A program made the position numbers and the translations under genes. From Escherichia phage phi92, in sequence record NC_023693.1: a stretch of 64,000 nt of DNA. One strand, written 5' to 3'. Shown here piece after piece: positions 2,895-56,101 of the stretch; position 1 is the first letter of the stretch, and every line of letters starts with the position of its first letter. Under the pieces are notes generated by a model. That model saw nothing but the letters and a program-made list of their open reading frames with translations. It made no database searches and was not told the DNA's origin.

Positions 2895-2903
2895 GGAGGA
2901 TTT

Positions 2904-3891: not shown

Positions 3892-4577
3892 TGAAAGAGA
3901 TTATGTTTGAAGGGCATCGTTACGAAGTTCCAGACAATGCAAATTTCATGGCTCGTGATATCACTGGAGATGTGTTCTGGTTTGAAGATGAACCTGTGTT
4001 TTCTTCGAACAAACACTGGTTTTCACAACAATCTTCTTCGGAAAATATGACTTTTGGTTATGTAGAACCTAAAGTGCGCTGCAAAGCAGCTTCTTCTTTG
4101 GTAAAAATTTCCCAAGATGATCAAGAAAATACTCAAGATGTTGTTAGTGCGCTACTGAAGTACATTGCAGAACTTGAGAAGAAAATTAAAGAAGCAGAAA
4201 CTAAGGTGAAAGCACGATCAGCCATCATTGAAGCTATGTCTGAACGTATCTTAGAGCTAGAAGATTTGTGTGGAGAGGCTTATCAAGTGGTCGGTGCACT
4301 GGCTTATGAAGCACAAATGTTTGAAACTTCAGAACAAGTTTCACATATGTTAGATAATTTAAGTGAATGTAAAATGATTCATGATGATGTATTGCCATTT
4401 TGTTGCAATGTTAACAAAACAGAGCAAACAGAAGATTCAGAAACAGTTTATGTTCCGCTGATGTGTGTTCCAGATCATCTAAAAGGTGTATTCTCTTGTA
4501 AATGGTCACTGTTGAGCGTTACTAATTGTGGTGAAAACTATTCTGCCAACATTGAATTGCTAAAACACGTTAAATAA
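3891..4577 (+). CDS. hypothetical protein
   Basis: 228 aa, ATGA start/stop overlap with upstream gene. Confidence 0.6.
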   Translation: MKEIMFEGHRYEVPDNANFMARDITGDVFWFEDEPVFSSNKHWFSQQSSSENMTFGYVEPKVRCKAASSLVKISQDDQENTQDVVSALLKYIAELEKKIKEAETKVKARSAIIEAMSERILELEDLCGEAYQVVGALAYEAQMFETSEQVSHMLDNLSECKMIHDDVLPFCCNVNKTEQTEDSETVYVPLMCVPDHLKGVFSCKWSLLSVTNCGENYSANIELLKHVK

Positions 4578-4587
4578 GGAGAGTAAT

Positions 4588-4992
4588 ATGTGGTCTGTTA
4601 AAATCAAATATAATGCGCAGTATTATGGTGGAAAGCCTTACGAAGTTGTTATTTGTGACTGTATCTCTAAAGAAGTTGCACAGCTTTGTGGCGCTGGGGT
4701 TAGTGAAGCTATGAACAAAATGCATAACTCGACTGTGCGTTACCTGGATCAAGATATTCCAGAAGATGTAAATGATTATGCTTACGAAGTTATTTACAGT
4801 GAAGGTAAGAAGCTCTCTATTGAAGATGCACTTAAAGCACTACCTGCTATGTGCAACCCGACACCAGAAGCAGTTAAAGAGATTTCACCAGAATCCAACC
4901 CCGATGAATATGCTGCTATGGTTGCTTCGGACATGTGGAATCTCTGTCGAGAAACTATGATTAAAAATCTGGTGGAAATGGCGCATGAGTAA
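4588..4992 (+). CDS. hypothetical protein
   Basis: 134 aa, AAGGAGAG SD. Confidence 0.55.
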   Translation: MWSVKIKYNAQYYGGKPYEVVICDCISKEVAQLCGAGVSEAMNKMHNSTVRYLDQDIPEDVNDYAYEVIYSEGKKLSIEDALKALPAMCNPTPEAVKEISPESNPDEYAAMVASDMWNLCRETMIKNLVEMAHE

Positions 4993-5203
4993 AACACACT
5001 TTATACATCCGTTTGATCCAAAGAACAAGGCGGTTATACACCGCCGTTGGACTGAAACGCGCATTACAAAATGTCCTGTGCCAGCAGCACAGGAATATAA
5101 CAAAACATATAAAGCAGAATTTGTGGAGTACACCTTTGTAAATAACAAAGGGAAGGAGGTTTATGTTCCAGAATACTGCCTTTGGATAAAATGGGAGGAA
5201 TAA
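4985..5203 (+). CDS. hypothetical protein
   Basis: 72 aa, overlaps upstream stop. Confidence 0.5.
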   Translation: MSKTHFIHPFDPKNKAVIHRRWTETRITKCPVPAAQEYNKTYKAEFVEYTFVNNKGKEVYVPEYCLWIKWEE

Positions 5204-5204
5204 T

Positions 5205-5370
5205 GCAAACATTTTTTATCGACAAGTTCAATAAAAGTATGAACACGTGGATGGCAACATTCACTATGCAATTTGCGTCATTTAAAGAAGCTCAAGAATG
5301 GTGCGATCAACACAAGGATTTTGATTTTTACTATCAAGTTAATGCAAACCTTTCTCCAGAGGATAAATAA
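5205..5370 (+). CDS. hypothetical protein
   Basis: ATG at 5205 preceded by GGGAGG; in frame with track ORF 5182-5370. Confidence 0.4.
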
Positions 5371-12317: not shown

Positions 12318-13130
12318 TTATTTAGTCAAATGATCTTCTATCATTTTTATGAAAGCAGGATTGCTAAAAGCATCTGCGGCCTTTTCTCGATAAACAAAGA
12401 CTCCTCTATCTTCGTAAAGAAGAGTTTCTTCGTAATTAATTCCTGGGTTAACAACAATCATTTTTGTACCCATATTAAGTGCAGGGAATAATTCCCAATT
12501 AAAATTGATAACTTGGTTTGAACATCCTACTACAACAACCAAATCTTGCATGGTCAAAGTATCAAACAAGTGAGCCATATCTGCATACAAAGGTGCAGCC
12601 TCACCAAAAAATACAACATTAGGCTTCACCCAGTTGTAATCATCTATGTTTATACTGTTGTAACCAATATCTACCAGTGTTTTGTAATCCCCAGGATGCA
12701 TACGGTAAACTACTTCAGGAAGATATCCGTGCACGTGGATAACAGAATCCCTGTCTACACCTGCTCGCTCTAGTAGATCATCAACGTTTGTTGTCAAGTT
12801 TACTACTTGGTTAGGATATTCCTTAAACCACTTTGCTATTTGAATATGTGCAGCATTAGGTTGTACATCTTTAAGCTCAACACGTCTTTTGTTATAAAAT
12901 TCGTGTGTTTTGGCATACAAATCCATACCGTTTTCATCTACACCACCAACCACTGGAAGATCTGGTGATGTTCTCACACGATAACCTGCTTGGAAAGCTC
13001 CAATATCGCAGATCTCTTCTAAATCCCATTCTTCCCATAGGGCACGACCACTATCTGTGTCTGTTCGGAATGTTCGAATCCCACTATCTGCACTTAAACC
13101 AGCTCCACTAACAAAAATTACTCTTCGCAT
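12318..13130 (-). CDS. Sir2-family (sirtuin-like) NAD-dependent protein
   Basis: GAGLSADSGIRTFR NAD-binding motif, NAAH...TTNVDDL...HVHG catalytic-His block, VVFFGE, VVVGCS, VVNPG; no CxxC zinc ribbon seen; GAGGA SD. Confidence 0.75.
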   Translation of the reverse strand: MRRVIFVSGAGLSADSGIRTFRTDTDSGRALWEEWDLEEICDIGAFQAGYRVRTSPDLPVVGGVDENGMDLYAKTHEFYNKRRVELKDVQPNAAHIQIAKWFKEYPNQVVNLTTNVDDLLERAGVDRDSVIHVHGYLPEVVYRMHPGDYKTLVDIGYNSINIDDYNWVKPNVVFFGEAAPLYADMAHLFDTLTMQDLVVVVGCSNQVINFNWELFPALNMGTKMIVVNPGINYEETLLYEDRGVFVYREKAADAFSNPAFIKMIEDHLTK

Positions 13131-26795: not shown

Positions 26796-27785
26796 TTAAA
26801 CTTTATTTTCCCACCACTCTTTGTTATCTACATACCAATCAATGGTTGAATAAAGTTTTTCTTCAAATGTGCCTTTAGCTTTCCACCCTAATTCCTTTTC
26901 AATCTTATAAGGATTCACTTCATATCTTAAATCATGCCCAGGCCTATCTGTAACCATCTCAATGAGGCTACAAGCATCTGTTTCAGATGGATATACCGCA
27001 TCCATATAATCACAAATCATATAGATTACATCAATATTAGTTCTAGGGTTTCTGCTCCCAATATTATATGTCTCTCCAGATTTGCCTTTAGTTACTACTA
27101 GGTGTAATGCCTCTGCGTGATCGTCAACGTATAACCAGTCTCTTACTTGAAGACCATTACCATAAACAGGGATTGGTTTATGCATTAAGATATTTGTTAT
27201 CGTTTTAGGTATTAGTTTTTCTGGATGATGATATGCTCCAAAATTATTTGAACAATTTGTTATAACTGTCGGAATACCATAAGTACGATGCCACGCTCTT
27301 ACCAAATGATCGCTTGCAGCTTTAGATGCAGCATATGGACTACTTGGTTTATAAGGATTCTGTTCTGTAAACGGATAATCTCCTTCTTCCAGATCACCAT
27401 ACACTTCATCTGTTGAAATATGATGGAACATTTTAAGATTTGATTTATCTCCCATTAAACGAACAGCTTCTAGAAGATTAAATGTCCCAACAATATTTGA
27501 ATTTATAAAAACACTCGGTGATGCTATTGAATTATCTACGTGACTCTCTGCTGCAAGATGCATTATATAATCTGGATTAACATCTGCCACAATCTTAGCA
27601 GTTAACTGCGCATTTGTCAAGTCAACACGACAAAACTTTACATTAGGTGTTTCTGATAAATTCCTAGGGTCTGAAGCGTAACCCCATTTATCTATAACGT
27701 AAATATCATTCTTAGTATTTTTAGCTAGGAAACGAACTACCGCACTTCCAATAAAGCCTAAACCACCTGTTACTAAGTATTTCAT
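26796..27785 (-). CDS. rmlB: dTDP-glucose 4,6-dehydratase
   Basis: [12 protein letters not shown]-binding motif, SDR-type YxxxK region, 329 aa. Confidence 0.85.
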
Positions 27786-29931: not shown

Positions 29932-29960
29932 TAAAAATTCTCCTCAATAAAAAGGGGCCG
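29932..29960 (-). terminator. rho-independent terminator
   Basis: AAGGGGTTTCGGCCCCTT hairpin then TTTTATTG on minus strand. Confidence 0.5.
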
Positions 29961-29974
29961 AAACCCCTTGATGT

Positions 29975-30631
29975 TTAGCCTTGGAACACTGTTTTTGTTT
30001 CTGCCAAGTGATAGTATAAATCTGCCTTGTTTATAAGAGTGTTGTATACCTCTTGACAAAAATGTTCTTCCTCTTTGTAACGATTCGCTGTTTCCCTGAT
30101 CGACTTGGCTTTATCTTTTAACCAAGCGAAGTGTGCCTCTTCCTCTGTAGCGAAATAGCCTAAATGCTTGCTTTTGCTTCCAGAAGTTTTGGCATAAATC
30201 TTGCCATCTTTCCTAATATGCGCTCCGAGTAAGTATTTCCTTTTATGTCTCTTGGCATAACTTAAAAGTGTATTGATATAGGGAGGAACAAACCTACAAT
30301 ATTCAGGACAATAGACAGTATTTCCCTCAAGAACAAGATCTTTGTCTAAAACAAAACCTTCGACATTGTGTTCTTGATACCAATTATCAAAATTTGAAAA
30401 AGTAAACCAAGCATCACAGACGGTAACATCTTTATACCCTGGTCTAATATCTTCCATCTTATATGCACGATGAAACATGCCTTTCCAAGCTGCATAGGAA
30501 GGGTCTATGAATGTGTTAACCCTTTTCCCGTTGACAACGCCACCTTCCCACAATCTACGTTCAACATCCACAATCAAGGGGATTTCTCCCCTCTCTGTGA
30601 GAACAGTAACTTTACGTTTACCCTTCTTCAC
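29975..30631 (-). CDS. putative homing endonuclease with AP2-type DNA-binding domain
   Basis: HLGYFATEEEAHFAW AP2-like block; free-standing ORF between nrdA and nrdB. Confidence 0.5.
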   Translation of the reverse strand: MKKGKRKVTVLTERGEIPLIVDVERRLWEGGVVNGKRVNTFIDPSYAAWKGMFHRAYKMEDIRPGYKDVTVCDAWFTFSNFDNWYQEHNVEGFVLDKDLVLEGNTVYCPEYCRFVPPYINTLLSYAKRHKRKYLLGAHIRKDGKIYAKTSGSKSKHLGYFATEEEAHFAWLKDKAKSIRETANRYKEEEHFCQEVYNTLINKADLYYHLAETKTVFQG

Positions 30632-30639
30632 CTGTCCTC

Positions 30640-32904
30640 CTACATTTTACAGGCGCTACACCCCTCGTCTTCAGAATCTTCTTGAGCGAGTGAGGATGCC
30701 GATTTTGTTCTGCTATTTAGATAGTACAAAGATTTACCACCAAGTTTTGCAAACTGAAGAATATATTGCATTTCTGATTTAATGGATAAACGACCACCTT
30801 CCATCTTAGAATAGTCAATCCACTTATCACATGATGCACCTTGATCTAAGAATTTAGTCAACAGTCCATATGCTTCAGCCATATCTTTATCTGGTGTATC
30901 CCAAGCCGATTGGTAAATATCTTTTAGTTTATCGTAGTCTGGCACAATAAACAGAACATTACCCTTTTGGCTTTGTTTATAAACTATAGTATCACGTACA
31001 GGATACACAGAGTTAGTCGTATTACTTACAAGACTACTGGACTCATTTGGAGCAATAGCTGCTAATACGCTATTTCGGATACCACCTTGTGCAATGATAT
31101 CTTGTCGTAAACCTTCCCAATCCATTTTAAGTTTAAAATTGCCAATATCGTCTACAGCTTTAGCGTAGGTATCAATAGGCAACCATCCTTCAGGCCATTT
31201 GGTTTTATGCATCCATTCTGCATTACCTTTCTCTTTTGCCAAACGAAGAGAAGCTCTTGCTAACCAGTAATAATGCCTTTCTGCTAATTCGTGAATTAGT
31301 TTTTTGCCGTAAGGATCTGAATAAGTAACAAAATTACTTGCCAGATAATGTGCAAGGTTTGTAATACCTACACCGATAGACCTACGTGCTTTAGCAGTGA
31401 TTTCGTTATGTTTAAACGGATACTGCATTGTTTCAATAACATTATCAATAGTTAGAACGGTATAGTATGCAACATCTTCATATTCTTCTGGTGTAACACG
31501 ACCAGCTACAATAGAAGACAGGAAGCATAATGCCAATTCTTGATCTTCTGTATTCTCACCTGTGAAAAGATCAGTCATATTGTGAAATGCTTTCGTAGGT
31601 AAGAAAATTTCTTGGCACAAGTTTGACTGATAAATAACATCCTTAAACGGGGTATGTTTATTAGCATTATCCGCAAAGAACATATAAATACGTCCTGTCT
31701 CTGCTCTTTGTGTAATAATTTCTGCCAGAAGATCTCGTGCTTTTACAAACTTTTTCTTAATTCGTTTGCGACTAACTTTTTCATATACTTCTTCAAACTC
31801 TTCCTCGCTTTTATAAAGCGCATCATAGAGTTCTGGTGCTTCGTCATAACTAACTAGCATCCAATCTTTACCTTTTGCTGCACGGCGCAGGAAAGCATTG
31901 TTTACTACGATAGAGTAATCAAGTTTATCTACTCGTTTTTCACTAACAGTAGTTGGGTTTTTCAAACGTACCAGATCTTCAAAATCAGGTTCTAGTATTG
32001 TAAACGTTACTGTTGCACTTCCACCACGACTTGCTTGTTTTGATGCTCCAACACTTGTCTCCATCCATTTCAGATATGGTAAAAGACCACCGTGAACGAT
32101 ACGGTTGTTCTTAACACCTTGTCCTGTGGCACGGGTTTGAAGGTTAACACCAATACCTGCATTATTCAATGTATATTCATGCGCAAGATAGTTAGCAATT
32201 GCTAAAGATTCTGCTGTATCGTCTGCTCTAAACAGACAACAAGAAGCACTACCTTTAATCTTAGTACGCAAAGTTGTTAAATAAGGCGATGGTAAATTAA
32301 TCTTAAGATCACTTACGTAGGTATATAGACGTTTAATGTCTTCTACTCTGCGATCTTTTGGTTGGATTTCCATTACCTTCATTGCTACACCAATGAATAA
32401 AAACTGTGGTGATTCAAAAACAACATCATTGATCGCATCTTTCACAAGATACTTATCAACCATCTGGCGCAGTACGGAATAACCATAAGTTAGGTTTTTA
32501 TCGTGATTGACAATTTTACCAATCTCAATAATTTCTTCTTCTGTATAATCCATTTTTCCCCAATAGCCTTTACTTACAGACATATTGTAGAAATCCAGGA
32601 GGGAGGGGATATTGTGATATCCCCCATGAGCCTGTTTATAAATCATACCAAGAAGTAACCGACCTGCCATATCACTATATGCCTGATCTTTCTTATCAAT
32701 ACATGCTGCTATCATAGCTTTATGTAAATCACGAGTAGGCACACCGTCGTAACAACGTTTAACAGCTTCGAGTTCAATTTCAGACCAATTTAATTTACCA
32801 GCAGCAAACTCTGACCATTTACGAAGTTTTTCTGGATTAAATTCTTCTTTCTTGCCGTTTGTTTTTGTTACATAACGGATAGATTTGCTTAGATACTGAG
32901 TCAC
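30640..32904 (-). CDS. nrdA: ribonucleotide reductase large subunit (class Ia)
   Basis: 754 aa; SNLCQEIFLP active-site Cys block, N-terminal ATP-cone-like region. Confidence 0.9.
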   Translation of the reverse strand: MTQYLSKSIRYVTKTNGKKEEFNPEKLRKWSEFAAGKLNWSEIELEAVKRCYDGVPTRDLHKAMIAACIDKKDQAYSDMAGRLLLGMIYKQAHGGYHNIPSLLDFYNMSVSKGYWGKMDYTEEEIIEIGKIVNHDKNLTYGYSVLRQMVDKYLVKDAINDVVFESPQFLFIGVAMKVMEIQPKDRRVEDIKRLYTYVSDLKINLPSPYLTTLRTKIKGSASCCLFRADDTAESLAIANYLAHEYTLNNAGIGVNLQTRATGQGVKNNRIVHGGLLPYLKWMETSVGASKQASRGGSATVTFTILEPDFEDLVRLKNPTTVSEKRVDKLDYSIVVNNAFLRRAAKGKDWMLVSYDEAPELYDALYKSEEEFEEVYEKVSRKRIKKKFVKARDLLAEIITQRAETGRIYMFFADNANKHTPFKDVIYQSNLCQEIFLPTKAFHNMTDLFTGENTEDQELALCFLSSIVAGRVTPEEYEDVAYYTVLTIDNVIETMQYPFKHNEITAKARRSIGVGITNLAHYLASNFVTYSDPYGKKLIHELAERHYYWLARASLRLAKEKGNAEWMHKTKWPEGWLPIDTYAKAVDDIGNFKLKMDWEGLRQDIIAQGGIRNSVLAAIAPNESSSLVSNTTNSVYPVRDTIVYKQSQKGNVLFIVPDYDKLKDIYQSAWDTPDKDMAEAYGLLTKFLDQGASCDKWIDYSKMEGGRLSIKSEMQYILQFAKLGGKSLYYLNSRTKSASSLAQEDSEDEGCSACKM

Positions 32905-43393: not shown

Positions 43394-43798
43394 TTATTGT
43401 AGCTTAAGTGAACTGCGAAGACGTTCCTCTTGCTGATCACGAATATGTTGTGGAACCTCATGAATTGAATCGTTACCGTGCCTATTCTCCACAACTAAAG
43501 AAATAACTTGATAACCAAACTCTTCAGCAAGAGTTAAATAGGGTTTAAGTTCTTTTTCTGTAGTAGAGGTATTAGAAACAATAATCTTTTCAACACCATA
43601 CTGCATATATTTTTGTACTTTGACACGACACCATTGGTGTGCTTTATGGATATTCTCTTGTTTCCACTCATACACACCATCTTCAGTGTAGTGGTATTGA
43701 TCTGCCTCACAAATAGGCCAATGATTTTCAGAGATAATTTCTGCTACTGTAGATTTACCTGCACCTGAAACACCACGTAAAATGATAAGTTGTTTCAT
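43394..43798 (-). CDS. P-loop kinase (polynucleotide kinase-like)
   Basis: Walker A GVSGAGKST at N-terminus, 134 aa; resembles kinase domain of T4 Pnk. Confidence 0.6.
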   Translation of the reverse strand: MKQLIILRGVSGAGKSTVAEIISENHWPICEADQYHYTEDGVYEWKQENIHKAHQWCRVKVQKYMQYGVEKIIVSNTSTTEKELKPYLTLAEEFGYQVISLVVENRHGNDSIHEVPQHIRDQQEERLRSSLKLQ

Positions 43799-44731
43799 TT
43801 AGCCTCCAAAGAAGTTTTCTATTTCTTTACGTCGCTCTTGTGGATCTAAAGCAGCCCATTGAGTCTTAGTAAAGTTGTTTCGAAGCCATTCTAGCAAAGT
43901 ATAATATTCTTCGTCAACAATTTGTTTAGCATTGTTTGGGTTGTCCCAAATCATATCCCACTTCTTATTGCCACCACGCATAAGGAATTTTTTAGCAAGA
44001 TAGTATGGTGACTTAATCTTTAACAGTAAGTTAAACGGGTAGTTTGTTTCACGAACAACAAACCCTTCGTGTTTACAATGTTTAGACATTTCAACAACAT
44101 CTGAAAATTTAATCATCGGATAAACTTCAGGACGTTTAAATTTTGTAACAGATGCAATCCCATCAAGAACACCTTCAGGTAACATGAAACTTGTCCCATC
44201 AAGATTTTGAATTCTTGCTCCAATTAAGTATGCGCCTGGTTCTTCTTCGACAATATGTGGGTCAGAAGGATCACAGATTTCAAAAAGAAAAGTTGCTTTT
44301 GCACTTTCTGTCCACTTAATGAAATACTCTATGTCGTCACACTCGGAAACAATACGGTTCTTTGCCATAATTGCGAAATCTGATTCTAGGCTCCCTGTTG
44401 TTGATACAACAAGTTTCCCTTTGTACACACCTACAGATGCCACAAAACCGTTTACTTTACGGACAGCATCTACAATTTCGTCTGCTGGAAGATCTGTACC
44501 ATTTTCAAAACGATTAAAGATTTTAGTAAAAGGCCAAATAACAACATTGTCTTCTGAGTCAACAACCAACCCACGACAATCTAAAAGTCGTTTGTCAACG
44601 TTCCACAAGTTATCCCAGAATACATTGTTTTTGTATTTAAGTACAGCAAGACCAGCATACTCTCCAGATTTAACTTCTTTTTTATGCACTAAACCTTTTG
44701 CAATCAGGTCATCACAATTGAACTTAGCCAC
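43799..44731 (-). CDS. ligase-family nucleotidyltransferase (RNA-ligase-like)
   Basis: motif I VRKVNGF (Kx[ND]G), motif IV EGFVVRE, motif V LLLKIK; second ligase besides the DNA ligase at 41537-42700. Confidence 0.55.
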   Translation of the reverse strand: MAKFNCDDLIAKGLVHKKEVKSGEYAGLAVLKYKNNVFWDNLWNVDKRLLDCRGLVVDSEDNVVIWPFTKIFNRFENGTDLPADEIVDAVRKVNGFVASVGVYKGKLVVSTTGSLESDFAIMAKNRIVSECDDIEYFIKWTESAKATFLFEICDPSDPHIVEEEPGAYLIGARIQNLDGTSFMLPEGVLDGIASVTKFKRPEVYPMIKFSDVVEMSKHCKHEGFVVRETNYPFNLLLKIKSPYYLAKKFLMRGGNKKWDMIWDNPNNAKQIVDEEYYTLLEWLRNNFTKTQWAALDPQERRKEIENFFGG

Positions 44732-44732
44732 C

Positions 44733-45284
44733 TTAATCTCCTTTGATTATCTTATGATGATCTACAACAATAATATCACGCTTATCCATAATAGAGATGA
44801 TTTCGTCAAAATGCAAGATTTTCCCGTGTGCATCCCAACCAACATCCAACATTTTCCCATACAAATGATCAGGGAATGATCCGTGAGAGTGTCCGTGTAG
44901 CATGATTGATCCATGCCCTTGTTTATTCCAGGCAGCCATAGGGTAATGACTTAAGACGAAGAACAGCTTCTGATATTTCACTTCGTCATAATACAAAACT
45001 TCTCCATACTCTGCAAGCACTTTTCTGTGTTTGCTGTAATCATGGTTCCCAACACAGTAAGTAATATCCCCTTGGAGACGGGAAGCAATCTTACGGGTAT
45101 CTTCTTCAGTCCCGAAACAGAAGTCCCCAAGATGGTACATCTTTACTCCTGGTGTTGTGGCACATTTATTCCATGCTTCGATCAGTGCTTCTGTCATATG
45201 CTCCATATCTTCCCACGGACGATATTCAGGAGCAAACTCTCGGATACGTTTGTGCATAAAATGCAAATCACTTGTAATAAACAT
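44733..45284 (-). CDS. metallophosphoesterase (calcineurin-like phosphoesterase)
   Basis: SDLHF, GDF, GNHD, HGHSH motifs. Confidence 0.75.
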   Translation of the reverse strand: MFITSDLHFMHKRIREFAPEYRPWEDMEHMTEALIEAWNKCATTPGVKMYHLGDFCFGTEEDTRKIASRLQGDITYCVGNHDYSKHRKVLAEYGEVLYYDEVKYQKLFFVLSHYPMAAWNKQGHGSIMLHGHSHGSFPDHLYGKMLDVGWDAHGKILHFDEIISIMDKRDIIVVDHHKIIKGD

Positions 45285-48110: not shown

Positions 48111-48139
48111 TTGACTTTAGATCTATCTGTATGTAGAGT
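48111..48139 (+). promoter_or_regulatory. sigma70-like promoter (TTGACT-N17-TAGAGT)
   Basis: in AT-rich divergent region, about 40 nt upstream of the 48179 start. Confidence 0.45.
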
Positions 48140-48178
48140 AGAGAACATAAAGTCCTAACTCAACTAAGGAGATAAACA

Positions 48179-49072
48179 ATGAAAGTTAGTATTCTACATG
48201 GTGTTGGCTGTTATGTTACTGATGTAGACGTTAAAGTCTTTACATTCTCTGGTGGAGAACAACATGTTCAACTAGACACGAATCTATCAGGTTTCAATCA
48301 TGCTACAGACAGAATCTTACTCTCTTTAGAAGTAAGATCTGCTAAAGACTTGATGACTTTGGTTATGACTAAGAATGCATTGGACAATATGCTATATCAT
48401 AAACCATATTGTGTTGATTTGCTCATGTTGTATGTGCCATATGCACGACAAGACAGAGTGTGTGAACCTGGGGAAGCATTCGGAGTTAAAGCATTTGCTT
48501 CTATAATTAATTCATTAAATTTCTCACGTGTTATCGTTGCTGATCCACATAGTGATGTTACTCCAGCGGTGTTTGACAGACTCTGTGTAATACCTCAAGA
48601 AGAAATTGCTTACGAAACTTTAAAGTGGAAGTTACGTATGGAGAATTTTGCTCTTGTTAGTCCTGATGGTGGTGCTCTTAAGAAAATATTTAAATTATCT
48701 AAGAAAATGTCTTTAGATGTGTTCTGTGCAGAGAAGGTTAGAGATACTGCAACAGGTGCTATTGTTCGTACAGACATTTCTGTACAGGATTTCAATAAGC
48801 GTAACCTGATGATCGTAGATGATATCTGTGACGGCGGTAGAACTTTTATTGAATTGGCTAAAGTGCTACGTGCTCGTAACGCAGGTAAGATTGAGTTATA
48901 TGTTACACACGGTATCTTTTCTAAAGGTCTTAAAGAGTTAAGTGAGCACTTTGACTGCATTCATTCTCTTAATGTGTGGGAAGATAACATCCAAGAAGAT
49001 TCCGGTGTTCTTGTTAAGAATCAGTCAGATTTGCAACAACAAATTGTATCTCCATACGTGTGGAATTTTTAA
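48179..49072 (+). CDS. ribose-phosphate pyrophosphokinase (PRPP synthetase) family protein; candidate ADP-ribose pyrophosphate synthetase (Adps-like)
   Basis: VSPDGGALKK and PRPP-binding-type IVDDICDGGRT motifs; AAGGAG SD. Confidence 0.8.
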   Translation: MKVSILHGVGCYVTDVDVKVFTFSGGEQHVQLDTNLSGFNHATDRILLSLEVRSAKDLMTLVMTKNALDNMLYHKPYCVDLLMLYVPYARQDRVCEPGEAFGVKAFASIINSLNFSRVIVADPHSDVTPAVFDRLCVIPQEEIAYETLKWKLRMENFALVSPDGGALKKIFKLSKKMSLDVFCAEKVRDTATGAIVRTDISVQDFNKRNLMIVDDICDGGRTFIELAKVLRARNAGKIELYVTHGIFSKGLKELSEHFDCIHSLNVWEDNIQEDSGVLVKNQSDLQQQIVSPYVWNF

Positions 49073-49081
49073 ATAATAAGT

Positions 49082-49110
49082 GTTGACAATAGGGAGTATG
49101 CTTAGTAAGA
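49082..49110 (+). promoter_or_regulatory. sigma70-like promoter (TTGACA-N17-TAAGAT)
   Basis: between the PRPP-synthetase-like and NAMPT-like genes. Confidence 0.45.
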
Positions 49111-49143
49111 TACTCCCACACTAACAAACAAGGAGACATAACT

Positions 49144-50877
49144 ATGAATATTTTTGCACCTTTTGCTACTGATTGGTATAAACCTGGTCACAAGCAGATG
49201 TACAACCAAAATACAAAACTCATTTTCTCTAATTTAACTCCTCGTAATGATAAAAACTTTGCACACTATGCAGATCGTGAAGCACGTGGTGTGATTGTTT
49301 TAGGTATTCGTCGAGCAGTCACTGATGCTCTTGTAACTATGTGGGATAGCTTCTTTAAAATGTCTCGTAGTGCAGCAGTAAATAAATTTTATCGTATGTC
49401 TAAAAATGCATTAGGTGCTTCTGCTCCTTCTGCTGAATGTTGGGAAGAATTGCACGATTTAGGTTATCTTCCGCTAGAAGTTCGATCTCTGCCAGAAGGT
49501 GTTTTGTGTCCTATTGGTGTTCCTGTGTTTACTGTGCATAATACTTTAGAAAAATTCTTTTGGTTAACTAACTATGTGGAAACACTATTGTCAGATGAAA
49601 CTTGGAAGACAATGACTAATGCCACAGCAGCTTTTCAGTATAAGCGTATCGCTATGGCGTATGCGATGGCAACGTGTGATAACATTGATCACGTTAATTT
49701 CCAGTGTCATGACTTTAGCCTACGTGGTTTAAGCAATATCGAAGATGGTTATAAGAGTGGTATCGCTCATTTGGCATCTTTCACAGGAACAGATAACATT
49801 CTGGCTATTGAGACTGTGCATGATTATTATGGTATTGATTATGATCAGTTTGTTGCAGGTTCTATTCCGGCAACAGAACATTCAGTAGCAACGACTAACA
49901 TTGGAGCTATTGTTGAAGATCTGAAGAAACATTTCCCACATCTTAAAGATGATGTTGATGGGCTTCGTTATGTAGCAGAGAAAGAGTTTCTTCGCCGCTA
50001 TATTGAAGAAATTGTTCCAGAAGGTTTTTGTTCATATGTAGCAGATTCTTATGATTACTGGGCTGTCTTGACTCGCATTCTGGTAGAATTGAAAGAGTCC
50101 ATTATGTCACGAAATGGTCGTCTTGTTATTCGTCCAGATTCAGGAGATCCGGTTAAAGTTGTTGCAGGATACAATGTTGAATCTTTTGCTAACTATGAAG
50201 ACCTTTTAAATAATGGTATTGCTACAGCCACTGAAGTAGTTCATTTGGCTGATGTTAATAAGTATTACAATGTTCTTCAGGATTGCAGTGTTGCTGATTG
50301 TATTGATGAAACTTATGAGATTCCTTATTGTGAAGCAGTAGGTTCTATTCAAATCCTTTGGGAAGTGTTTGGTGGTACTATCAACCGAAAAGGCTACAAG
50401 GTTCTTGATCAGCACATCGGTATGATTTATGGTGATTCTATTACTGTTGAACGAGAATACGAGATCTTACGCCGACTGAAGAAGAAAGGTTTTGCAGCTT
50501 CCAATATTGTATTTGGTGTTGGTAGTTATACTTATCAGTTCAATACACGAGATACTTTTGGTTTTGCTGTTAAAGCAACAGGTAGTATCATCGGTGAACA
50601 CGAAATTTTGGTAAGTAAGGAGCCTAAAACTGATCCTGGTAAACGCTCTGCAAAAGGTTTTATTAAGGTTGTTAAGGATACAAATGGTAAACTTTCTCTT
50701 GTGGATAATCTTTCTTTTAAAGATATCCAAGATGAAGACAATGAGTTAAAAGTTATCTTCAGGGATGGTACGGTTATTACACCACAAGTAGAAGGACGTG
50801 ATGAAACATTTACTGATATCCGCAACCGTGTTGATGTAGAGGTTCTTCGTACTATGGGAACCATCCAGGTTGACTAA
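49144..50877 (+). CDS. nicotinamide phosphoribosyltransferase (NAMPT) family protein; candidate nicotinamide ADP-ribose transferase (Namat-like)
   Basis: N-terminal TDWYKPGH (DSYKxxH-like), RPDSGD, FGVGSYTYQFNTRDTFGFAVKAT blocks of NAMPT family; AAGGAGA SD. Confidence 0.8.
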   Translation: MNIFAPFATDWYKPGHKQMYNQNTKLIFSNLTPRNDKNFAHYADREARGVIVLGIRRAVTDALVTMWDSFFKMSRSAAVNKFYRMSKNALGASAPSAECWEELHDLGYLPLEVRSLPEGVLCPIGVPVFTVHNTLEKFFWLTNYVETLLSDETWKTMTNATAAFQYKRIAMAYAMATCDNIDHVNFQCHDFSLRGLSNIEDGYKSGIAHLASFTGTDNILAIETVHDYYGIDYDQFVAGSIPATEHSVATTNIGAIVEDLKKHFPHLKDDVDGLRYVAEKEFLRRYIEEIVPEGFCSYVADSYDYWAVLTRILVELKESIMSRNGRLVIRPDSGDPVKVVAGYNVESFANYEDLLNNGIATATEVVHLADVNKYYNVLQDCSVADCIDETYEIPYCEAVGSIQILWEVFGGTINRKGYKVLDQHIGMIYGDSITVEREYEILRRLKKKGFAASNIVFGVGSYTYQFNTRDTFGFAVKATGSIIGEHEILVSKEPKTDPGKRSAKGFIKVVKDTNGKLSLVDNLSFKDIQDEDNELKVIFRDGTVITPQVEGRDETFTDIRNRVDVEVLRTMGTIQVD

Positions 50878-50948
50878 ATAAAAACTTCGTGATAAGATTA
50901 AGGTAAGGAGAGCCTGCAACTGCCCTGGATGGGCTTCACGAAGGATTT

Positions 50949-51170
50949 ATGAAACAACATAATTTTTATTTTCGTTGCCGAGCCTGTAACAGACACTTGA
51001 CTAATCACTCCCGTAGAGACAGGAATGGTAATATTCAAGAGTCGGATCTATGCTCGATTTGTACAAGTTTGGCATTCGACGACAGTCCCGAAAGGGTTTA
51101 TCAACATCAAAGTGTAACTGATCTTCTTCTAAATTACACAGCACCAGAGGAGGAATTAGATTTAACATAA
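50949..51170 (+). CDS. small zinc-ribbon protein
   Basis: CRACNRH...CSIC, 73 aa. Confidence 0.45.
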   Translation: MKQHNFYFRCRACNRHLTNHSRRDRNGNIQESDLCSICTSLAFDDSPERVYQHQSVTDLLLNYTAPEEELDLT

Positions 51171-51183
51171 TTAAGGAAACAGT

Positions 51184-51294
51184 ATGTCTACAGAAATTAT
51201 TTTTGGCTTATCTGTTTTTATTGCTATTGTATCTTTTGTATGCGGTTATACACTAGGTTACAGATCAAGAAAAAATATTGTAAAAACTAGTTGA
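51184..51294 (+). CDS. small membrane peptide (36 aa)
   Basis: AAGGAAA SD; single hydrophobic helix. Confidence 0.3.
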   Translation: MSTEIIFGLSVFIAIVSFVCGYTLGYRSRKNIVKTS

Positions 51295-51320
51295 CAACAT
51301 AGCTAGTTATTTGCTAAGAT
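51291..51320 (+). promoter_or_regulatory. sigma70-like promoter (TTGACA-N18-TAAGAT)
   Basis: upstream of 51351 gene. Confidence 0.45.
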
Positions 51321-51624: not shown

Positions 51625-51700
51625 GGTTCCATAGCTCACTGACGAGAGCGCACACCTCATAAGTGTCGAGGGCAGGGATTGTAACCCTGGGGAACCACCA
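51625..51700 (+). tRNA. tRNA-Met/Ile2-like (anticodon CAT), non-canonical T-loop
   Basis: manual fold: acceptor GGTTCC/GGAACC, D-stem GCTC/GAGC, anticodon loop CTCATAA, T-stem CAGGG/CCCTG with loop ATTGTAA, CCA encoded. Confidence 0.5.
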
Positions 51701-51731
51701 TTTAAAAGGAGGTGCTATGCATCTCCTATAT

Positions 51732-51817
51732 GCAAGTGTGGTGGAATTGGTGATACACATTGTGCTTAAAACGCAACGCTTAAATGCTTGAGGGTTCGAA
51801 TCCCTCCACTTGCACCA
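51732..51817 (+). tRNA. tRNA-Leu (anticodon TAA)
   Basis: manual fold: acceptor GCAAGTG/CACTTGC, anticodon stem TTGTG/CGCAA, loop CTTAAAA, long variable arm, T-arm GAGGG-TTCGAAT-CCCTC, CCA. Confidence 0.7.
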
Positions 51818-51833
51818 ACACCTAAAAAATATC

Positions 51834-51862
51834 TTGACATTTACTTAGTTTTTTGTTATAGT
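51834..51862 (+). promoter_or_regulatory. sigma70-like promoter (TTGACA-N17-TATAGT)
   Basis: immediately upstream of tRNA-like element at 51874. Confidence 0.45.
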
Positions 51863-51873
51863 TACTATGAAAA

Positions 51874-51955
51874 CGGGGTGTATCTCACCTGACTTCTAAT
51901 CAGGCGTTAACCGAGTAATTGGAGTATGCAGGTTCGAATCCTGTCACCCCGGCCA
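51874..51955 (+). tRNA. tRNA-like element, identity unresolved (candidate anticodon loop CTTCTAA)
   Basis: acceptor CGGGGTG/CACCCCG, T-arm GCAGG-TTCGAAT-CCTGT, CCA; perfect hairpin CCTGA-CTTCTAA-TCAGG but no D-arm found by eye. Confidence 0.4.
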
Positions 51956-51973
51956 AAAAGTTTTAAAAACTAC

Positions 51974-52002
51974 TTGACAAGCAAGATAGTTTTATGTTAG
52001 AT
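51974..52002 (+). promoter_or_regulatory. sigma70-like promoter (TTGACA-N17-TTAGAT)
   Basis: upstream of tRNA-Ser at 52019. Confidence 0.4.
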
Positions 52003-52018
52003 TTAAAGTATGATAACT

Positions 52019-52108
52019 GGAAGGTAGGGCGCAGCGGTGCGCAACCAGGTTTGAACCCTGGCCCATTGTAGCGATACGGTGATGGTTCGACTCCATTATC
52101 TTCCTCCA
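52019..52108 (+). tRNA. tRNA-Ser (anticodon TGA)
   Basis: manual fold: acceptor GGAAGGT/ATCTTCC, anticodon stem CCAGG/CCTGG loop TTTGAAC, long variable arm, T-loop TTCGACT, CCA. Confidence 0.65.
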
Positions 52109-52114
52109 AATTCA

Positions 52115-52279
52115 ATGAGTGATTTTATGAATTATAAAACTATTGGACAGGTTGTTACCGGAGTTAAGATTGTAAATAATAAAGTTGTTTATGAGTATTC
52201 TAATCTTCAACAATCTGAAGATGGTAAGAATATTCGTATGGTAAAAACAGAACAAAAAGATTCCGGTTGTTTTGAATAA
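52115..52279 (+). CDS. small hypothetical protein inside tRNA cluster
   Basis: ORF between tRNAs; start uncertain (ATG 52115 or 52127); weak SD. Confidence 0.3.
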   Translation: MSDFMNYKTIGQVVTGVKIVNNKVVYEYSNLQQSEDGKNIRMVKTEQKDSGCFE

Positions 52280-52287
52280 TTAAAAAC

Positions 52288-52373
52288 GGTAGATTGGTGA
52301 AATGGTAGCCACAACAGTTTGCTAAACTGTCGTCGGAAACGGCGTGTAGGTTCAAGTCCTACATCTACCGCCA
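52288..52373 (+). tRNA. tRNA-Ser (anticodon GCT)
   Basis: manual fold: acceptor GGTAGAT/ATCTACC, anticodon stem ACAGT/ACTGT loop TTGCTAA, long variable arm, T-arm GTAGG-TTCAAGT-CCTAC, CCA. Confidence 0.7.
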
Positions 52374-52507
52374 AGTTATCTTTAATGTAGCTTGTAATCT
52401 TACTTTAGCAGAGTAAACTTTCGGCAGATGGTGGCAGCCATTTTACCGATACCCCAATACTTCATAGCTAAGTGCCGCAAACACTGGCTATTTTAAAGAT
52501 AATTTAT

Positions 52508-52583
52508 ACATCGTTAGCTTAGTTGGTAGAGCAAGGGTCTTTTAACTCCAAGGTCGAAGGTTCGAATCCTTCACGATGTACCA
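52508..52583 (+). tRNA. tRNA-Lys-like (anticodon TTT), weak anticodon stem
   Basis: perfect acceptor ACATCGT/ACGATGT, D-arm GCTTAGTTGGTAGAGC, loop CTTTTAA, T-arm GAAGG-TTCGAAT-CCTTC, CCA; anticodon stem only about 3 bp. Confidence 0.55.
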
Positions 52584-52588
52584 AACAT

Positions 52589-52675
52589 GTAGGTATCGCA
52601 TAGCGGCAATTGCTGGAGACTGTAAATCTCTTGCCCTTCGGGGCTTCGTTGGTTCGAGTCCAACTACCTGCACCA
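52589..52675 (+). tRNA. tRNA-Tyr (anticodon GTA)
   Basis: manual fold: acceptor GTAGGTA/TACCTGC, anticodon stem GGAGA/TCTCT loop CTGTAAA, long variable arm, T-loop TTCGAGT, CCA. Confidence 0.65.
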
Positions 52676-52682
52676 AATTAAA

Positions 52683-52767
52683 GATGGATTGGCCTAGTGG
52701 TTGGGCGACGGACTGTTAATCCGTGAACGAAAGTTCTAGCAAGGTTCAAATCCTTGATCCATCGCCA
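52683..52767 (+). tRNA. tRNA with Asn anticodon (GTT) on a class-II (long variable arm) body
   Basis: manual fold: acceptor GATGGAT/ATCCATC, 3 bp D-stem, anticodon stem ACGGA/TCCGT loop CTGTTAA, variable arm hairpin GAAC-GAAA-GTTC, T-arm CAAGG-TTCAAAT-CCTTG, discriminator G, CCA. Confidence 0.55.
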
Positions 52768-52772
52768 TATAG

Positions 52773-52840
52773 TGCTTGTAGAGTTAATAGAAACCTCTAG
52801 AATTTTCTAGAATTGTAGGTATCAAATCCTACCAAGCAAA
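52773..52840 (+). tRNA. degenerate tRNA-like remnant (possible pseudo-tRNA)
   Basis: T-arm-like GTAGG-TATCAAAT-CCTAC with 8 nt loop, no CCA, overlapping TCTAGA inverted repeats instead of a clean anticodon arm. Confidence 0.2.
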
Positions 52841-52846
52841 TATTTT

Positions 52847-52921
52847 GCTCCTATCGTATAACGGCTATTACGGTTGCCTTGTAAGCAACTTATCAGGGTT
52901 CGAGTCCTTGTGGGAGCACCA
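52847..52921 (+). tRNA. tRNA-Thr (anticodon TGT)
   Basis: manual fold: acceptor GCTCCTA/TGGGAGC, anticodon stem GTTGC/GCAAC loop CTTGTAA, T-loop TTCGAGT, CCA. Confidence 0.7.
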
Positions 52922-52943
52922 ATTTAACTCTAAAGGAGTGTAT

Positions 52944-53267
52944 GTGACAGAAAAAGAGTTAGAGAAATATTTTAATATCAATGTTTTCGATGGTTTTGAT
53001 GATATTGAAGATGTTGAAAGATATTATGAAGTAGAGTTAGATAAGGATAACATTGTAATTCTTTCTGCCACTTATGATTGTGCATATTATGAAGGTGAAT
53101 CTCACGTTTATTTCTATGATATGAAAACATCTTTGTTTTATGAAGTACACGCATATCATTGTTCTTGTTATGGCTTAGAAGGTCAGTGGGAACCTGAAGA
53201 AATAGGTGATTTGGACTTTACTATTGCATATCTAAACAGACGTGGTGCATCTACTATTTTAAAATAA
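52944..53267 (+). CDS. hypothetical protein inside tRNA cluster
   Basis: GTG start after AAAGGAG SD; in frame with track ORF 52845-53267, whose 5' part overlaps tRNA-Thr. Confidence 0.45.
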   Translation: MTEKELEKYFNINVFDGFDDIEDVERYYEVELDKDNIVILSATYDCAYYEGESHVYFYDMKTSLFYEVHAYHCSCYGLEGQWEPEEIGDLDFTIAYLNRRGASTILK

Positions 53268-53281
53268 ATATTAAAAGCCTC

Positions 53282-53311
53282 TTGACAAAGGGGCTAATAA
53301 TATGTTAGAGT
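53282..53311 (+). promoter_or_regulatory. sigma70-like promoter (TTGACA-N18-TAGAGT)
   Basis: upstream of tRNA-Gly. Confidence 0.45.
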
Positions 53312-53322
53312 AATATTGTTAA

Positions 53323-53397
53323 GCGGGTATAGTGTTAATGGTAGCATATGAGGTTTCCACCCTCCAGGTGCAGGTTCAAGTCCTGTTACTCGCTCCA
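53323..53397 (+). tRNA. tRNA-Gly (anticodon TCC)
   Basis: manual fold: acceptor GCGGGTA/TACTCGC, anticodon loop TTTCCAC, T-arm GCAGG-TTCAAGT-CCTGT, CCA. Confidence 0.6.
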
Positions 53398-53828
53398 AGA
53401 TTATTTAAATGGAATCGCTAGAGAAAATTTCTCTTTTCGCTCATGGTTTTCTCCTTCAAACTCTAGCGGTTCTTTTTAAGTGATTTTTTAGTTTATTGGA
53501 GATTCACTGCCTTAGTGTGAGCTAAAATCGAGGAGCCATCGAACTGTCTGATTAATGATTTGCGAATCATTATAGTTTTAAGACCCCGGCAGTTTTATGG
53601 TGTACCTCTTGAATGTGAATGATGACGGGTTTATGGTTATCCTGGTCGTTAAATATCCAAAAACCTATGTTCCCCTTGAGGGCTTGCGCAGGCAATGCCA
53701 ATAAGTCCTGCATTTTCATTTAAAAGAGAATTTATAATGGAAAAAGATGAACTTAAGTATGCTAAGCCTCTGGCTTCTGCTGCACGAAAAGCAGTTCGTC
53801 ACTTTGTGGTAACACTGAAGTAATTTAT

Positions 53829-53903
53829 TGGAGATTGGCCTAGTGGGAAGGCAACGGCCTTTGAAGTCGTGATGACTAGGTTCGATTCCTAGATCTCCAG
53901 CCA
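53829..53903 (+). tRNA. tRNA-Gln (anticodon TTG)
   Basis: manual fold: acceptor TGGAGAT/ATCTCCA, anticodon stem ACGGC/GTCGT loop CTTTGAA, T-arm CTAGG-TTCGATT-CCTAG, CCA. Confidence 0.65.
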
Positions 53904-53910
53904 AGATTTA

Positions 53911-53986
53911 CAGTGCGTAGCGCAGTTGGTAGCGTGGGAGCCTTGGACGCTTCAGGTCGCAGGTTCGAGTCCTGCCGCACTGACCA
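53911..53986 (+). tRNA. tRNA-Pro (anticodon TGG)
   Basis: manual fold: acceptor CAGTGCG/CGCACTG, anticodon loop CTTGGAC, T-arm GCAGG-TTCGAGT-CCTGC, CCA. Confidence 0.65.
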
Positions 53987-53991
53987 AATTT

Positions 53992-54066
53992 GCAGAGATA
54001 GCTGAGACGGATTAGTGCTACCCTGAAAAGGTAGAAAGGATGGATCGTTACCATCTCTCTGCACCA
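53992..54066 (+). tRNA. tRNA-Phe (anticodon GAA), atypical T-loop
   Basis: manual fold: perfect acceptor GCAGAGA/TCTCTGC, anticodon stem CTACC/GGTAG loop CTGAAAA, T-arm GATGG-ATCGTTA-CCATC, CCA. Confidence 0.6.
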
Positions 54067-54143
54067 AATAACACCATCCAAGGAGAATACTTGGTTAACT
54101 GTCAATAGCACATTGAGGCTTCTTACAGTGGTGTACTTATTAT

Positions 54144-54228
54144 GGCTAAGTGGTGGAATGGTATACACGATACGCTTAGAACGTATTGCCCCAAGGGATT
54201 GTGAGTTCGAGTCTCACCTTAGCTACCA
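54144..54228 (+). tRNA. tRNA-Leu (anticodon TAG)
   Basis: manual fold: acceptor GGCTAAG/CTTAGCT, anticodon stem ATACG/CGTAT loop CTTAGAA, long variable arm, T-arm GTGAG-TTCGAGT-CTCAC, CCA. Confidence 0.7.
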
Positions 54229-54243
54229 AATTATTACAAGTTT

Positions 54244-54322
54244 CGCGGGATAGAGGAGTCTGGTCGTCCTCGCCAGTTTCATATGCTGGAGATCGTAGGT
54301 TCAAATCCTACTCCCGTTACCA
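54244..54322 (+). tRNA. tRNA-Met (anticodon CAT), initiator-like
   Basis: 5' CGCGGGA with unpaired position 1-72 (as in bacterial tRNA-fMet), anticodon stem CCAGT/GCTGG loop TTCATAT, T-arm GTAGG-TTCAAAT-CCTAC, CCA. Confidence 0.6.
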
Positions 54323-54387
54323 ACAAATACCTCCCTTCTGGTGTAATGATTAAATTACATTGACACTTCAAGGAACTCATAGCCGGG

Positions 54388-54463
54388 TAGATTTAAAAGA
54401 GTATGGTACTCAATATGGCTCCAAACCATAGATCAGGGGGTTCGATTCCTCACCTTGCTGCCA
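54388..54463 (+). tRNA. tRNA-Trp-like (anticodon CCA), acceptor stem not resolved
   Basis: perfect anticodon arm TATGG-CTCCAAA-CCATA, D-stem GAGT/ACTC, T-loop TTCGATT, 3' CCA; 5' acceptor strand does not pair well by eye. Confidence 0.4.
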
Positions 54464-54468
54464 ATTAT

Positions 54469-54544
54469 TGTGGTATCGTACAGATGGTTAGTACACTCGA
54501 CCGATAATCGAGAAACAACGGTTCGACTCCGTTTACCACGACCA
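54469..54544 (+). tRNA. tRNA-Ile (anticodon GAT)
   Basis: manual fold: acceptor TGTGGTA/TACCACG, anticodon stem CTCGA/TCGAG loop CCGATAA, T-arm AACGG-TTCGACT-CCGTT, CCA. Confidence 0.65.
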
Positions 54545-55669: not shown

Positions 55670-56101
55670 ATGATGATACTGACTATGTTAATAAACCTAC
55701 TGAAGAATAAATGGGTTAGGTATTTTGTTCTTATTATAGCACTGTTTGGTGGTTTGTATGTTGGTTTAAACAAATTACACGATGACGTGTATGCACAAGG
55801 CTACAACGCAGGTATTGCTAAACAAGAACAAATATTACAACAAAACCAAATTAAAGCAAAACAGCAGTTCGATATCTTACAAGCAAAAGCAGATTCAGAA
55901 AGATCTAAATTGAATGAAAAAATTCATTCATTAACGAAACAAAGAAATGATCTTCTTACACAACTGGATAAGAAGAGTAATAACATAACACAAGAGAGAA
56001 TAGATTATGCGAAAACATCTTCTGGCGCTATGTCTTGTTTTAGCCCTAATGATGACGGGTTGCGCATCATCAACAACAGCTTCCCAGCCTCTATTGATTG
56101 A
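55670..56101 (+). CDS. i-spanin-like protein (inner-membrane spanin, Rz-like)
   Basis: N-terminal TM segment VRYFVLIIALFGGLYVGL then Gln/Lys-rich coiled-coil; next gene embedded in its 3' end. Confidence 0.5.
   Translation: MMILTMLINLLKNKWVRYFVLIIALFGGLYVGLNKLHDDVYAQGYNAGIAKQEQILQQNQIKAKQQFDILQAKADSERSKLNEKIHSLTKQRNDLLTQLDKKSNNITQERIDYAKTSSGAMSCFSPNDDGLRIINNSFPASID

Follow-up and report, generated by a model that had tools for sequence, protein, structure and literature searches.

A putative two-gene NAD+ reconstitution (NARP1) module in Escherichia phage phi92 and its relation to described systems

NAD+ reconstitution pathway 1 (NARP1) is a pathway by which phages rebuild a metabolite destroyed by host immunity, nicotinamide adenine dinucleotide (NAD+), by means of two previously undescribed reactions. 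Adps converts ADP-ribose (ADPR) and ATP to ADPR-pyrophosphate (ADPR-PP), and Namat combines ADPR-PP with nicotinamide to form NAD+ (Osterman et al. 2024, bioRxiv 10.1101/2024.02.11.579819). In the current analysis we have considered a stretch of 64,000 nucleotides of Escherichia phage phi92 (sequence record NC_023693.1), referred to here as the window, in which two plus-strand open reading frames (ORFs) lie side by side at 48179-49072 (297 amino acids) and 49144-50877 (577 amino acids) with a gap of 71 bp. The activities and the phenotype of this ortholog pair are predicted from homology, from residues specific to the two families, from the genomic context and from the published catalogue. On these grounds the two genes very probably constitute a minimal two-gene NARP1 module and are referred to below as adps and namat. 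The pair is already catalogued as NARP1 in the tables of the discovery paper and the mechanism is not new.

The anti-defence phenotype of NARP1 has been shown for the phages Bas63 and FADO. Bas63 without its genes 79-80, annotated as Prs and Nampt, is sensitised to SIR2-HerA and shows NAD+ collapse, and the effect of Bas63 NARP1 is independent of the host PncC and NadR. In the course of Bas63 infection ADPR-PP is seen only in cells carrying the SIR2-HerA defence and not in defence-free ones. Purified Adps of the Bacillus phage SPbetaL1 forms ADPR-PP from ADPR and, as per the figure legend, gives no product from ribose-5-phosphate and ATP, while SPbetaL1 Namat prefers ADPR-PP over phosphoribosyl pyrophosphate (PRPP) and yields only NAD+ when both are offered (all from bioRxiv 10.1101/2024.02.11.579819). 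The enzyme activities have been shown for the SPbetaL1 enzymes and for homologs of P. foliorum and DyoEdafos, and in vivo for Bas63. In a related arrangement, NARP1-AP of Vibrio phage Gary, a Macro-domain ADPR-1''-phosphate phosphatase (Adpp) accompanies Adps and Namat (bioRxiv 10.64898/2026.01.28.702374).

The structural basis of the substrate preference of Namat is described in a 2026 paper (PMC12774641). The catalytic core of Nampt is conserved in Namat and an adenine-binding 'selectivity clamp', comprised of the SCH helix and the SCL loop, has been added. The SCH motif is GS-X-Phi1-X-Phi2-X-Phi3-TRD with X aromatic, and the SCL is an extended beta1-beta2 loop with Arg, Lys or Tyr at its third position, which supplies the adenine-stacking residue.

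In phi92 the pathway would operate when NAD+ is split into ADP-ribose and nicotinamide by a host defence, for example SIR2-HerA, DSR1/2, type I Thoeris or SEFIR. Adps, a diverged Prs, would then move pyrophosphate from ATP onto the free ribose C1'' of ADP-ribose to give ADPR-PP, and Namat, a diverged Nampt with the adenine-binding clamp, would swap the pyrophosphate of ADPR-PP for nicotinamide, giving NAD+ directly. Such a route would proceed without an NMN (nicotinamide mononucleotide) intermediate, and an NMN adenylyltransferase (NMNAT) would not be required. The original prediction, made from the nucleotide sequence alone, had proposed ADPR pyrophosphorylation followed by condensation with nicotinamide as a counter-defence. 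This corresponds to the published NARP1 and is supported, by homology, for the genus of phi92. Its observation is confirmed, its interpretation supported and already known, and a reader of the sequence alone had arrived at the correct mechanism.

The presence of adjacent plus-strand genes resembling those for Prs and Nampt is borne out by family matches of both products that greatly exceed chance, and all four peptides quoted for them in the original prediction (VSPDGGALKK, IVDDICDGGRT, RPDSGD and FNTRDTFGFAVKAT) are found in the two translations. The product of 48179-49072 matches phrog_619 (5.9e-91), TIGR01251 (2.3e-34) and PF00156/PF14572. It is identical in 297/297 residues to the phi92 protein FR775895_00103 in Table S1 of bioRxiv 10.1101/2024.02.11.579819, where its entry carries the remark 'Namat within 10 genes: Yes'.

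Scores against the Prs models of NCBIfam place this protein with the validated Adps proteins, 4-5 times below canonical Prs. With the model NF002320 (cutoff 297) phi92 Adps scores 99.6 bits, Bas63 Adps 100.8 and SPbetaL1 Adps 74, as against 532.6 for E. coli Prs; the corresponding scores with TIGR01251 are 118.7, 138.5, 106 and 422.7 bits. The phi92 protein fails all ten Prs-specific models (NF002095, for example, 97.8 against a cutoff of 296) and passes only the broad TIGR01251 model, and that barely, the cutoff being 113. In phmmer comparisons it scores 179-189 bits with the members of the Adps clade from PVP-SE1 and Klebsiella phage 0507-KN2-1, 134 bits with Bas63 Adps (35% identity, E 6e-43), 65 bits with SPbetaL1 Adps and 58.7 bits with E. 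coli Prs. The catalytic lysine K162 of SPbetaL1 Adps aligns with K186 of phi92 Adps, and the loop that contains it, K-x-R-[DN]-x-x-T-[GNL], is conserved in 14 of 14 aligned phage sequences, E. coli Prs having DKRRPR instead. In sequence the product resembles the validated Bas63 Adps more than it does E. coli Prs, and it has kept the catalytic lysine.

The product of 49144-50877 matches PF04095 (2e-37), phrog_448 (1.6e-187) and NF006629 (1.1e-137). All 399 stored residues of FR775895_00104, labelled 'Adps-associated' in Table S2 of bioRxiv 10.1101/2024.02.11.579819, are identical in it; the published table holds only the first 399 residues of that protein, the full length of which is 577. Namat of a close relative, phage muut, has three differences from these stored residues. 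The best matches in PDB are 9w5x/9w5w (399 bits), the numbering of which agrees with SPbetaL1 Namat as given in PMC12774641, and human NAMPT scores about 168 bits. Identity to Bas63 Namat is 40% (E 5e-138).

As NF006629 passes phi92 Namat, Bas63 Namat and the PRPP-using KVP40 Nampt alike, the SCH motif has been used as the discriminator. In phi92 Namat it reads GSYTYQFNTRD (residues 460-470), with Y, Y and F at the X positions and T, Q and N at the Phi positions, and is similar to GSYTYQYMTRD of Bas63 Namat and GSFTYQYNTRD of SPbetaL1 Namat. The PRPP-using controls, KVP40 Nampt (GGGLLQQLDRD) and Xanthomonas Nampt (GGALLQKVDRD), are without it. The NAD+ contacts of SPbetaL1 Namat were mapped through the alignment of phi92 Namat with 9w5x, and 19 contact residues were checked. 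Fifteen of them (D13, Y15, F189, S190, R192, D215, R306, D308, G360, D361, G390, S391, T398, R399 and D400) are identical in phi92 Namat, three are conservatively replaced (A362 to S, F392 to Y and Y396 to F), and one, the SCL residue R40, is without a clear equivalent. The Nampt-like catalytic core is also kept, SPbetaL1 F189, R192, D215, R306, D308, D13' and Y15' corresponding to phi92 F191, R194, D217, R330, D332, D10 and Y12. Sequence comparison thus identifies the product as a member of the Namat family with the adenine-clamp SCH motif.

Two further features of this family were observed. phi92 and Bas63 Namat share insertions at about residues 253-282 and 343-399, which SPbetaL1 Namat and KVP40 Nampt do not have and which go unmentioned in the sections of PMC12774641 consulted. 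The PDB entries 9ke8/9keo, entitled 'nicotinamide phosphoribosyltransferase', score 340 bits with phi92 Namat and show a hybrid clamp, GAQTYQRNTRD, with one aromatic X; this protein may represent a Namat/Nampt intermediate.

The family assignments bear directly on a classical salvage role, in which a true PRPP synthetase and a true Nampt would supply NMN to be converted to NAD+ by host NadR or PncC-dependent routes. The proteins do match the Prs and NAPRTase/Nampt families, more than 50 GenBank/RefSeq records of the genus label the genes 'ribose-phosphate pyrophosphokinase' and 'nicotinamide/nicotinate phosphoribosyltransferase', and Namat homologs can produce NMN from PRPP in vitro. Such a role is nevertheless highly improbable, as phi92 Adps lies far under every curated Prs equivalog cutoff, like the validated Adps proteins, while E. 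coli Prs passes; SPbetaL1 Adps gave no Prs-type product and made ADPR-PP; phi92 Namat carries the Namat-specific clamp motif; and Namat given both substrates yielded NAD+ only.

The window also encodes a CobB-type class III sirtuin of 270 residues on the minus strand at 12318-13130, which matches PF02146 (1.6e-22) and phrog_2162 and scores 68 bits with E. coli CobB (1s5p). It keeps the NAD-binding motif GAGxSxxSGIxxFR and a histidine aligned with the catalytic HG, and is likely to be an NAD+-consuming enzyme in an NAD+-rebuilding genome. The same NARP1 chemistry could accordingly be imagined to serve mainly in housekeeping, by recycling ADP-ribose and nicotinamide released by phage NAD+ consumers such as this sirtuin, and NARP1-like pairs occur in non-mobile bacterial regions as well, where housekeeping roles have been proposed. 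Sirtuin deacylation, on the other hand, gives O-acyl-ADPR and not free ADPR, for which an extra step would be needed; the sirtuin gene is 35 kb away from adps and namat and on the opposite strand; and in Bas63 infection ADPR-PP was seen only with the SIR2-HerA defence present. A chiefly housekeeping function is on this evidence very unlikely.

A pathway of the NARP2 type would require an NMNAT, and the search for such a partner was extended beyond the window, which covers about 64 kb of a genome of about 147 kb. The complete genome of phage alia (NC_052655) was used as a proxy for the whole genome, the window being collinear with its positions 89207-147009 plus 1-5218 at 96-99% identity. The window and the complete alia sequence were translated in all six frames, and regular expressions for HxGH, ISST and Nudix-box motifs found none in a real ORF; the sole 'ISSTIIR' match runs antisense to adps. 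Searches of the same translations with E. coli NadD and NadR (phmmer --max) revealed no NMNAT of the NadD/NadR type, the best E being 2.7, and neither an NMNAT nor a NadR or Nudix gene appears in the annotation of alia. The claim that the window holds no NMNAT or Nudix partner is upheld by these results, and the presence of an NMNAT elsewhere in the genome, which the original prediction had named as evidence against its reading, was not observed in alia. In NARP2 a PRPP-using Nampt acts with a phage NMNAT/Nudix protein, as KVP40 NadV does with NatV, and although phi92 Namat has the Nampt fold, NF006629 scores it and KVP40 NadV alike, and the window is only part of the genome, the absence of an NMNAT or Nudix box from the window and from alia leads us to rule out this scarcely credible alternative, and phi92 Namat moreover has the Namat motif, not that of KVP40 Nampt, and the published label 'Adps-associated'.

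Three annotated alia genes were considered and rejected in this connection. The 'nucleotidyltransferase' gp038 shows in Pfam a weak PolyA_pol head domain (Pol-beta/CCA-type) below the cutoff, and the 'nucleotide pyrophosphohydrolase' gp214 is of the PRA-PH/MazG type and not Nudix. For the 71-residue gp113 (plus strand, L004:31674-31889, L004 being a piece of the alia genome), which RefSeq names 'phosphoribosylpyrophosphate synthetase', Pfam gave no match and phmmer detected no resemblance to E. coli Prs; the product name is likely to be an annotation artefact. A further suspect product of alia proved in Pfam to be a Sir2.

Several points weigh against the assignment of the phi92 pair to NARP1. 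None of the publications found describes an enzyme assay or a knockout for NARP1 of Justusliebigvirus, the genus of phi92-like phages, and Namat enzymes also convert PRPP to NMN in vitro (bioRxiv 10.1101/2024.02.11.579819 and PMC12774641). The only Adps characterised in vitro, that of SPbetaL1 (65 bits), is hardly closer to phi92 Adps than E. coli Prs (59 bits); the Adps call therefore leans on Bas63 (35% identity, operon-level evidence in vivo), on the clear Namat neighbour and on the published phylogeny. No Adps structure is present in PDB, in which the best matches of phi92 Adps are canonical Prs proteins at about 58 bits. A neighbour-joining tree of 14 phage Adps-clade proteins with one canonical outgroup (E. 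coli Prs) cannot test monophyly, the outgroup being single, and the clade rests on the published tree. In Namat, the SCL of phi92 is long like that of Bas63, with Lys37 at the third position, but Asn38 takes the place of the stacking Trp of Bas63 and is followed by Phe39, which makes the stacking residue uncertain from sequence. Finally, each gene may have a separate promoter, and the term operon denotes here the gene arrangement only.

The signals around the two genes are as follows. A candidate sigma70-like promoter is located 5' of adps at 48111-48139 on the plus strand (TTGACT-17-TAGAGT; 9 of 12 consensus positions, a consensus match only) in a divergent intergenic region of about 400 bp; here the coding strand changes, and at the same place, about 47.8-48 kb, the GC skew reverses. 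A Shine-Dalgarno sequence AAGGAG (48166-48171, plus strand) lies 7 nt 5' of the ATG of adps at 48179. The promoter candidate of namat (49083-49111, plus strand; TTGACA-17-TAAGAT; 10 of 12 consensus positions) is followed by an AAGGAG (49130-49135, plus strand) situated 8 nt 5' of the ATG at 49144. The hexamers of a sigma70-like promoter before each gene are hence located as in the original prediction; they are matches to the consensus only, and a generic sigma70 scan of the sequence gave no enrichment over shuffles (17 against 13.7 +/- 4.0). A stem-loop at 49079-49122 (plus strand; -15.3 kcal/mol, z = -2.8, with 1 of 200 shuffles folding as well) overlaps the spacer and the -10 of the namat promoter candidate. 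An intrinsic terminator between adps and namat was considered and rejected, since the hairpin is without a T-run and a terminator scan gave no match at this place.

Of the more specific motif TTGACW-N17/18-TAAGAT the window has four copies where 0.16 would be expected by chance, and none of 100 shuffles reaches four. Three of the copies (49083-49111, 50870-50898 and 51291-51320) are intergenic and on the plus strand, extending over 49083 to 51320 from namat to the tRNA cluster, and the fourth is on the minus strand at 27592-27620. The set is probably a family of promoters for the host sigma70. The tRNA cluster, which forms part of the context and not of the pathway, comprises 15 genes identified with ARAGORN at 51625-54544 on the plus strand, and the same arrangement is annotated in alia. 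It begins about 750 bp past namat and is separated from it by short ORFs of 73 and 88 amino acids, such that its description as lying directly downstream of the gene pair is roughly right. A tRNA at 52508-52583 (plus strand) was reported by ARAGORN with a two-base anticodon 'tt'; its counterpart in alia is annotated as tRNA-Lys.

A megablast search (at least 95% DNA identity) recovered the region of the gene pair from 54 phage records, with 97-99.2% identity. Almost all of these are phi92-like E. coli myophages, which belong to the genus Justusliebigvirus (Stephanstirmvirinae). Four 'Campylobacter phage' records, MG065639, MG065645, MG065656 and MG065689 (A150, A145, C3 and A110a; host C. jejuni), show 98.4-98.5% identity at the locus and are probably mislabelled or contaminant genomes. 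Recent horizontal acquisition of the pair was considered and not retained, its GC content of 0.35-0.38 being equal to that of the flanks. Five segments of the window, 562-1141, 3919-4550, 29949-30676, 52120-52397 and 53504-53824, are not aligned to alia by megablast; they are indels or replaced segments, two of which fall within the tRNA cluster.

A likely candidate for an RNA/tRNA-repair trio is encoded on the minus strand at 43397-45284, a few kb 5' of adps/namat and the tRNA genes. It is composed of an AAA_33 kinase-like protein (43397-43798), an RNA ligase of the T4 Rnl1 type (43802-44731; PF09511, 4e-14) and a protein of the metallophosphoesterase superfamily (44736-45284), the last with a weak match of 21 bits that is below the cutoff. 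The trio, adps/namat and the tRNA genes may together form a counter-defence neighbourhood.

A homolog of Adpp has also been identified in the proxy genome, outside the window and about 80 kb away from adps/namat in alia. This gene, gp066 (record positions 55853-56569, minus strand; L004:5853-6569), encodes a Macro-domain 'phosphatase' whose C-terminal 150 residues share 41% identity (E 2e-36) with Adpp of Vibrio phage Gary, a validated enzyme, and which has an added N-terminus of about 85 residues without a Pfam match. Homologs of gp066 are present in 53 phage records, as compared to 54 with the NARP1 pair, with a similar breakdown of organisms and hosts. A more distant Adpp homolog (E 1e-13), Bas63_0095 (L001:33279-34064), is encoded about 8 kb from the Bas63 NARP1 operon. 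The phages phi92, PaulScherrer and JohannRWettstein were not found in the supplementary files of the aRES paper (operon-based Table S1); the Adpp homolog being absent from this table, operon-based surveys would miss it.

Following gp066 in alia are gp067-gp068 (L004:6562-8068, minus strand), which encode a ComF-like phosphoribosyltransferase (PF15610, 9e-42), named 'orotate phosphoribosyltransferase' in some records, and a HAD hydrolase, and genes annotated 'tellurite resistance' and 'TerC' are located near gp066. The set gp066-gp068 resembles a Ter-associated nucleoside-metabolite cluster. In view of these neighbours, the Adpp-like gene may serve another pathway.

The sirtuin and the Adpp homolog raise the rather doubtful possibility that NARP1 in phi92-like phages is the core of a dispersed network handling NAD+ and ADP-ribose and not a stand-alone pair. 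In such a network the unlinked Adpp homolog could feed ADPR into NARP1, as a 'split' NARP1-AP resisting defence of the aRES type, and the CobB-type sirtuin may also be linked to the cycle. If true, the share of NARP1 phages with NARP1-AP, estimated at 15%, would be an underestimate. The unlinked Adpp homolog and the sirtuin, encoded in the same genomes, are the only part of these findings that may merit further study. The phi92 locus adds nothing new on NARP1 itself, and AntiDefenseFinder already detects the system; its practical value is in annotation, as the current GenBank/RefSeq product names imply wrong substrates and products.

Compared with the canonical enzymes, phi92 Adps has the fold, the RQDR motif and the PRPP-type loop of Prs (E. 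coli, PDB 4s2u), but scores only 58.7 bits with it and has KVRDxxTG in place of the KRR loop and DPHS in place of DLHA. phi92 Namat similarly shares the fold and the catalytic core of human NAMPT and Xanthomonas Nampt, with human NAMPT scoring 168 bits only and being without the adenine clamp. The NARP2 pair of KVP40 (NadV, a Nampt, and NatV, an Nmnat-Nudix protein) resembles the phi92 module in having a phage enzyme of the Nampt fold that raises NAD+, and the core motifs DFxxRG, TEHS, RPDSG and xRD align. It differs in that KVP40 Nampt has a short SCL and no aromatic SCH, and in that NARP2 needs an NMNAT and is without an Adps partner.

Among the NARP1 variants, NARP1-AP of phage Gary has the Adps/Namat core in common with phi92, which is without a Macro gene in or beside adps/namat. 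The RyDEP-associated form of NARP1 differs by its gene for a cyclic ADPR glycosidase with the RyR domain (PF02026); neither a Macro nor an RyR domain was found in the eight ORFs flanking adps/namat (Pfam, E <= 0.1).

In vitro and crystallographic characterisation is available for SPbetaL1 NARP1 (Adps WIT26982.1; Namat PDB 9w5x/9w5w; PMC12774641). phi92 Adps is very distant from its counterpart in this phage and has the ribose-phosphate loop DDICDGGRT against DDLSSFGGT, and phi92 Namat has the two added insertions and a Lys-type SCL in place of the stacking Arg40. The motifs PHS and K-x-R-[DN]-x-x-T-G, with the catalytic lysine, are nevertheless common to both Adps proteins, and 18 of the 19 mapped NAD+ contacts of Namat are kept or conservatively replaced.

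The NARP1 pair of Bas63 (JohannRWettstein, Felixounavirus; bas63_0079 for Adps and bas63_0080 for Namat) belongs to Ounavirinae and not to Stephanstirmvirinae, and its proteins are only 35-40% identical to those of phi92. The fourth residue of its SCL is the stacking Trp where phi92 has Asn, and phi92 differs further in the promoter-like site held in its 71-bp gap. It is like phi92 in gene order, orientation and short gap, and the two Namat proteins have in common the SCH type GSYTYQ[FY]xTRD, the long SCL whose third residue is Lys, and the two shared insertions; Bas63 and the phi92-like phages are, moreover, alike E. coli myophages with tRNA clusters.

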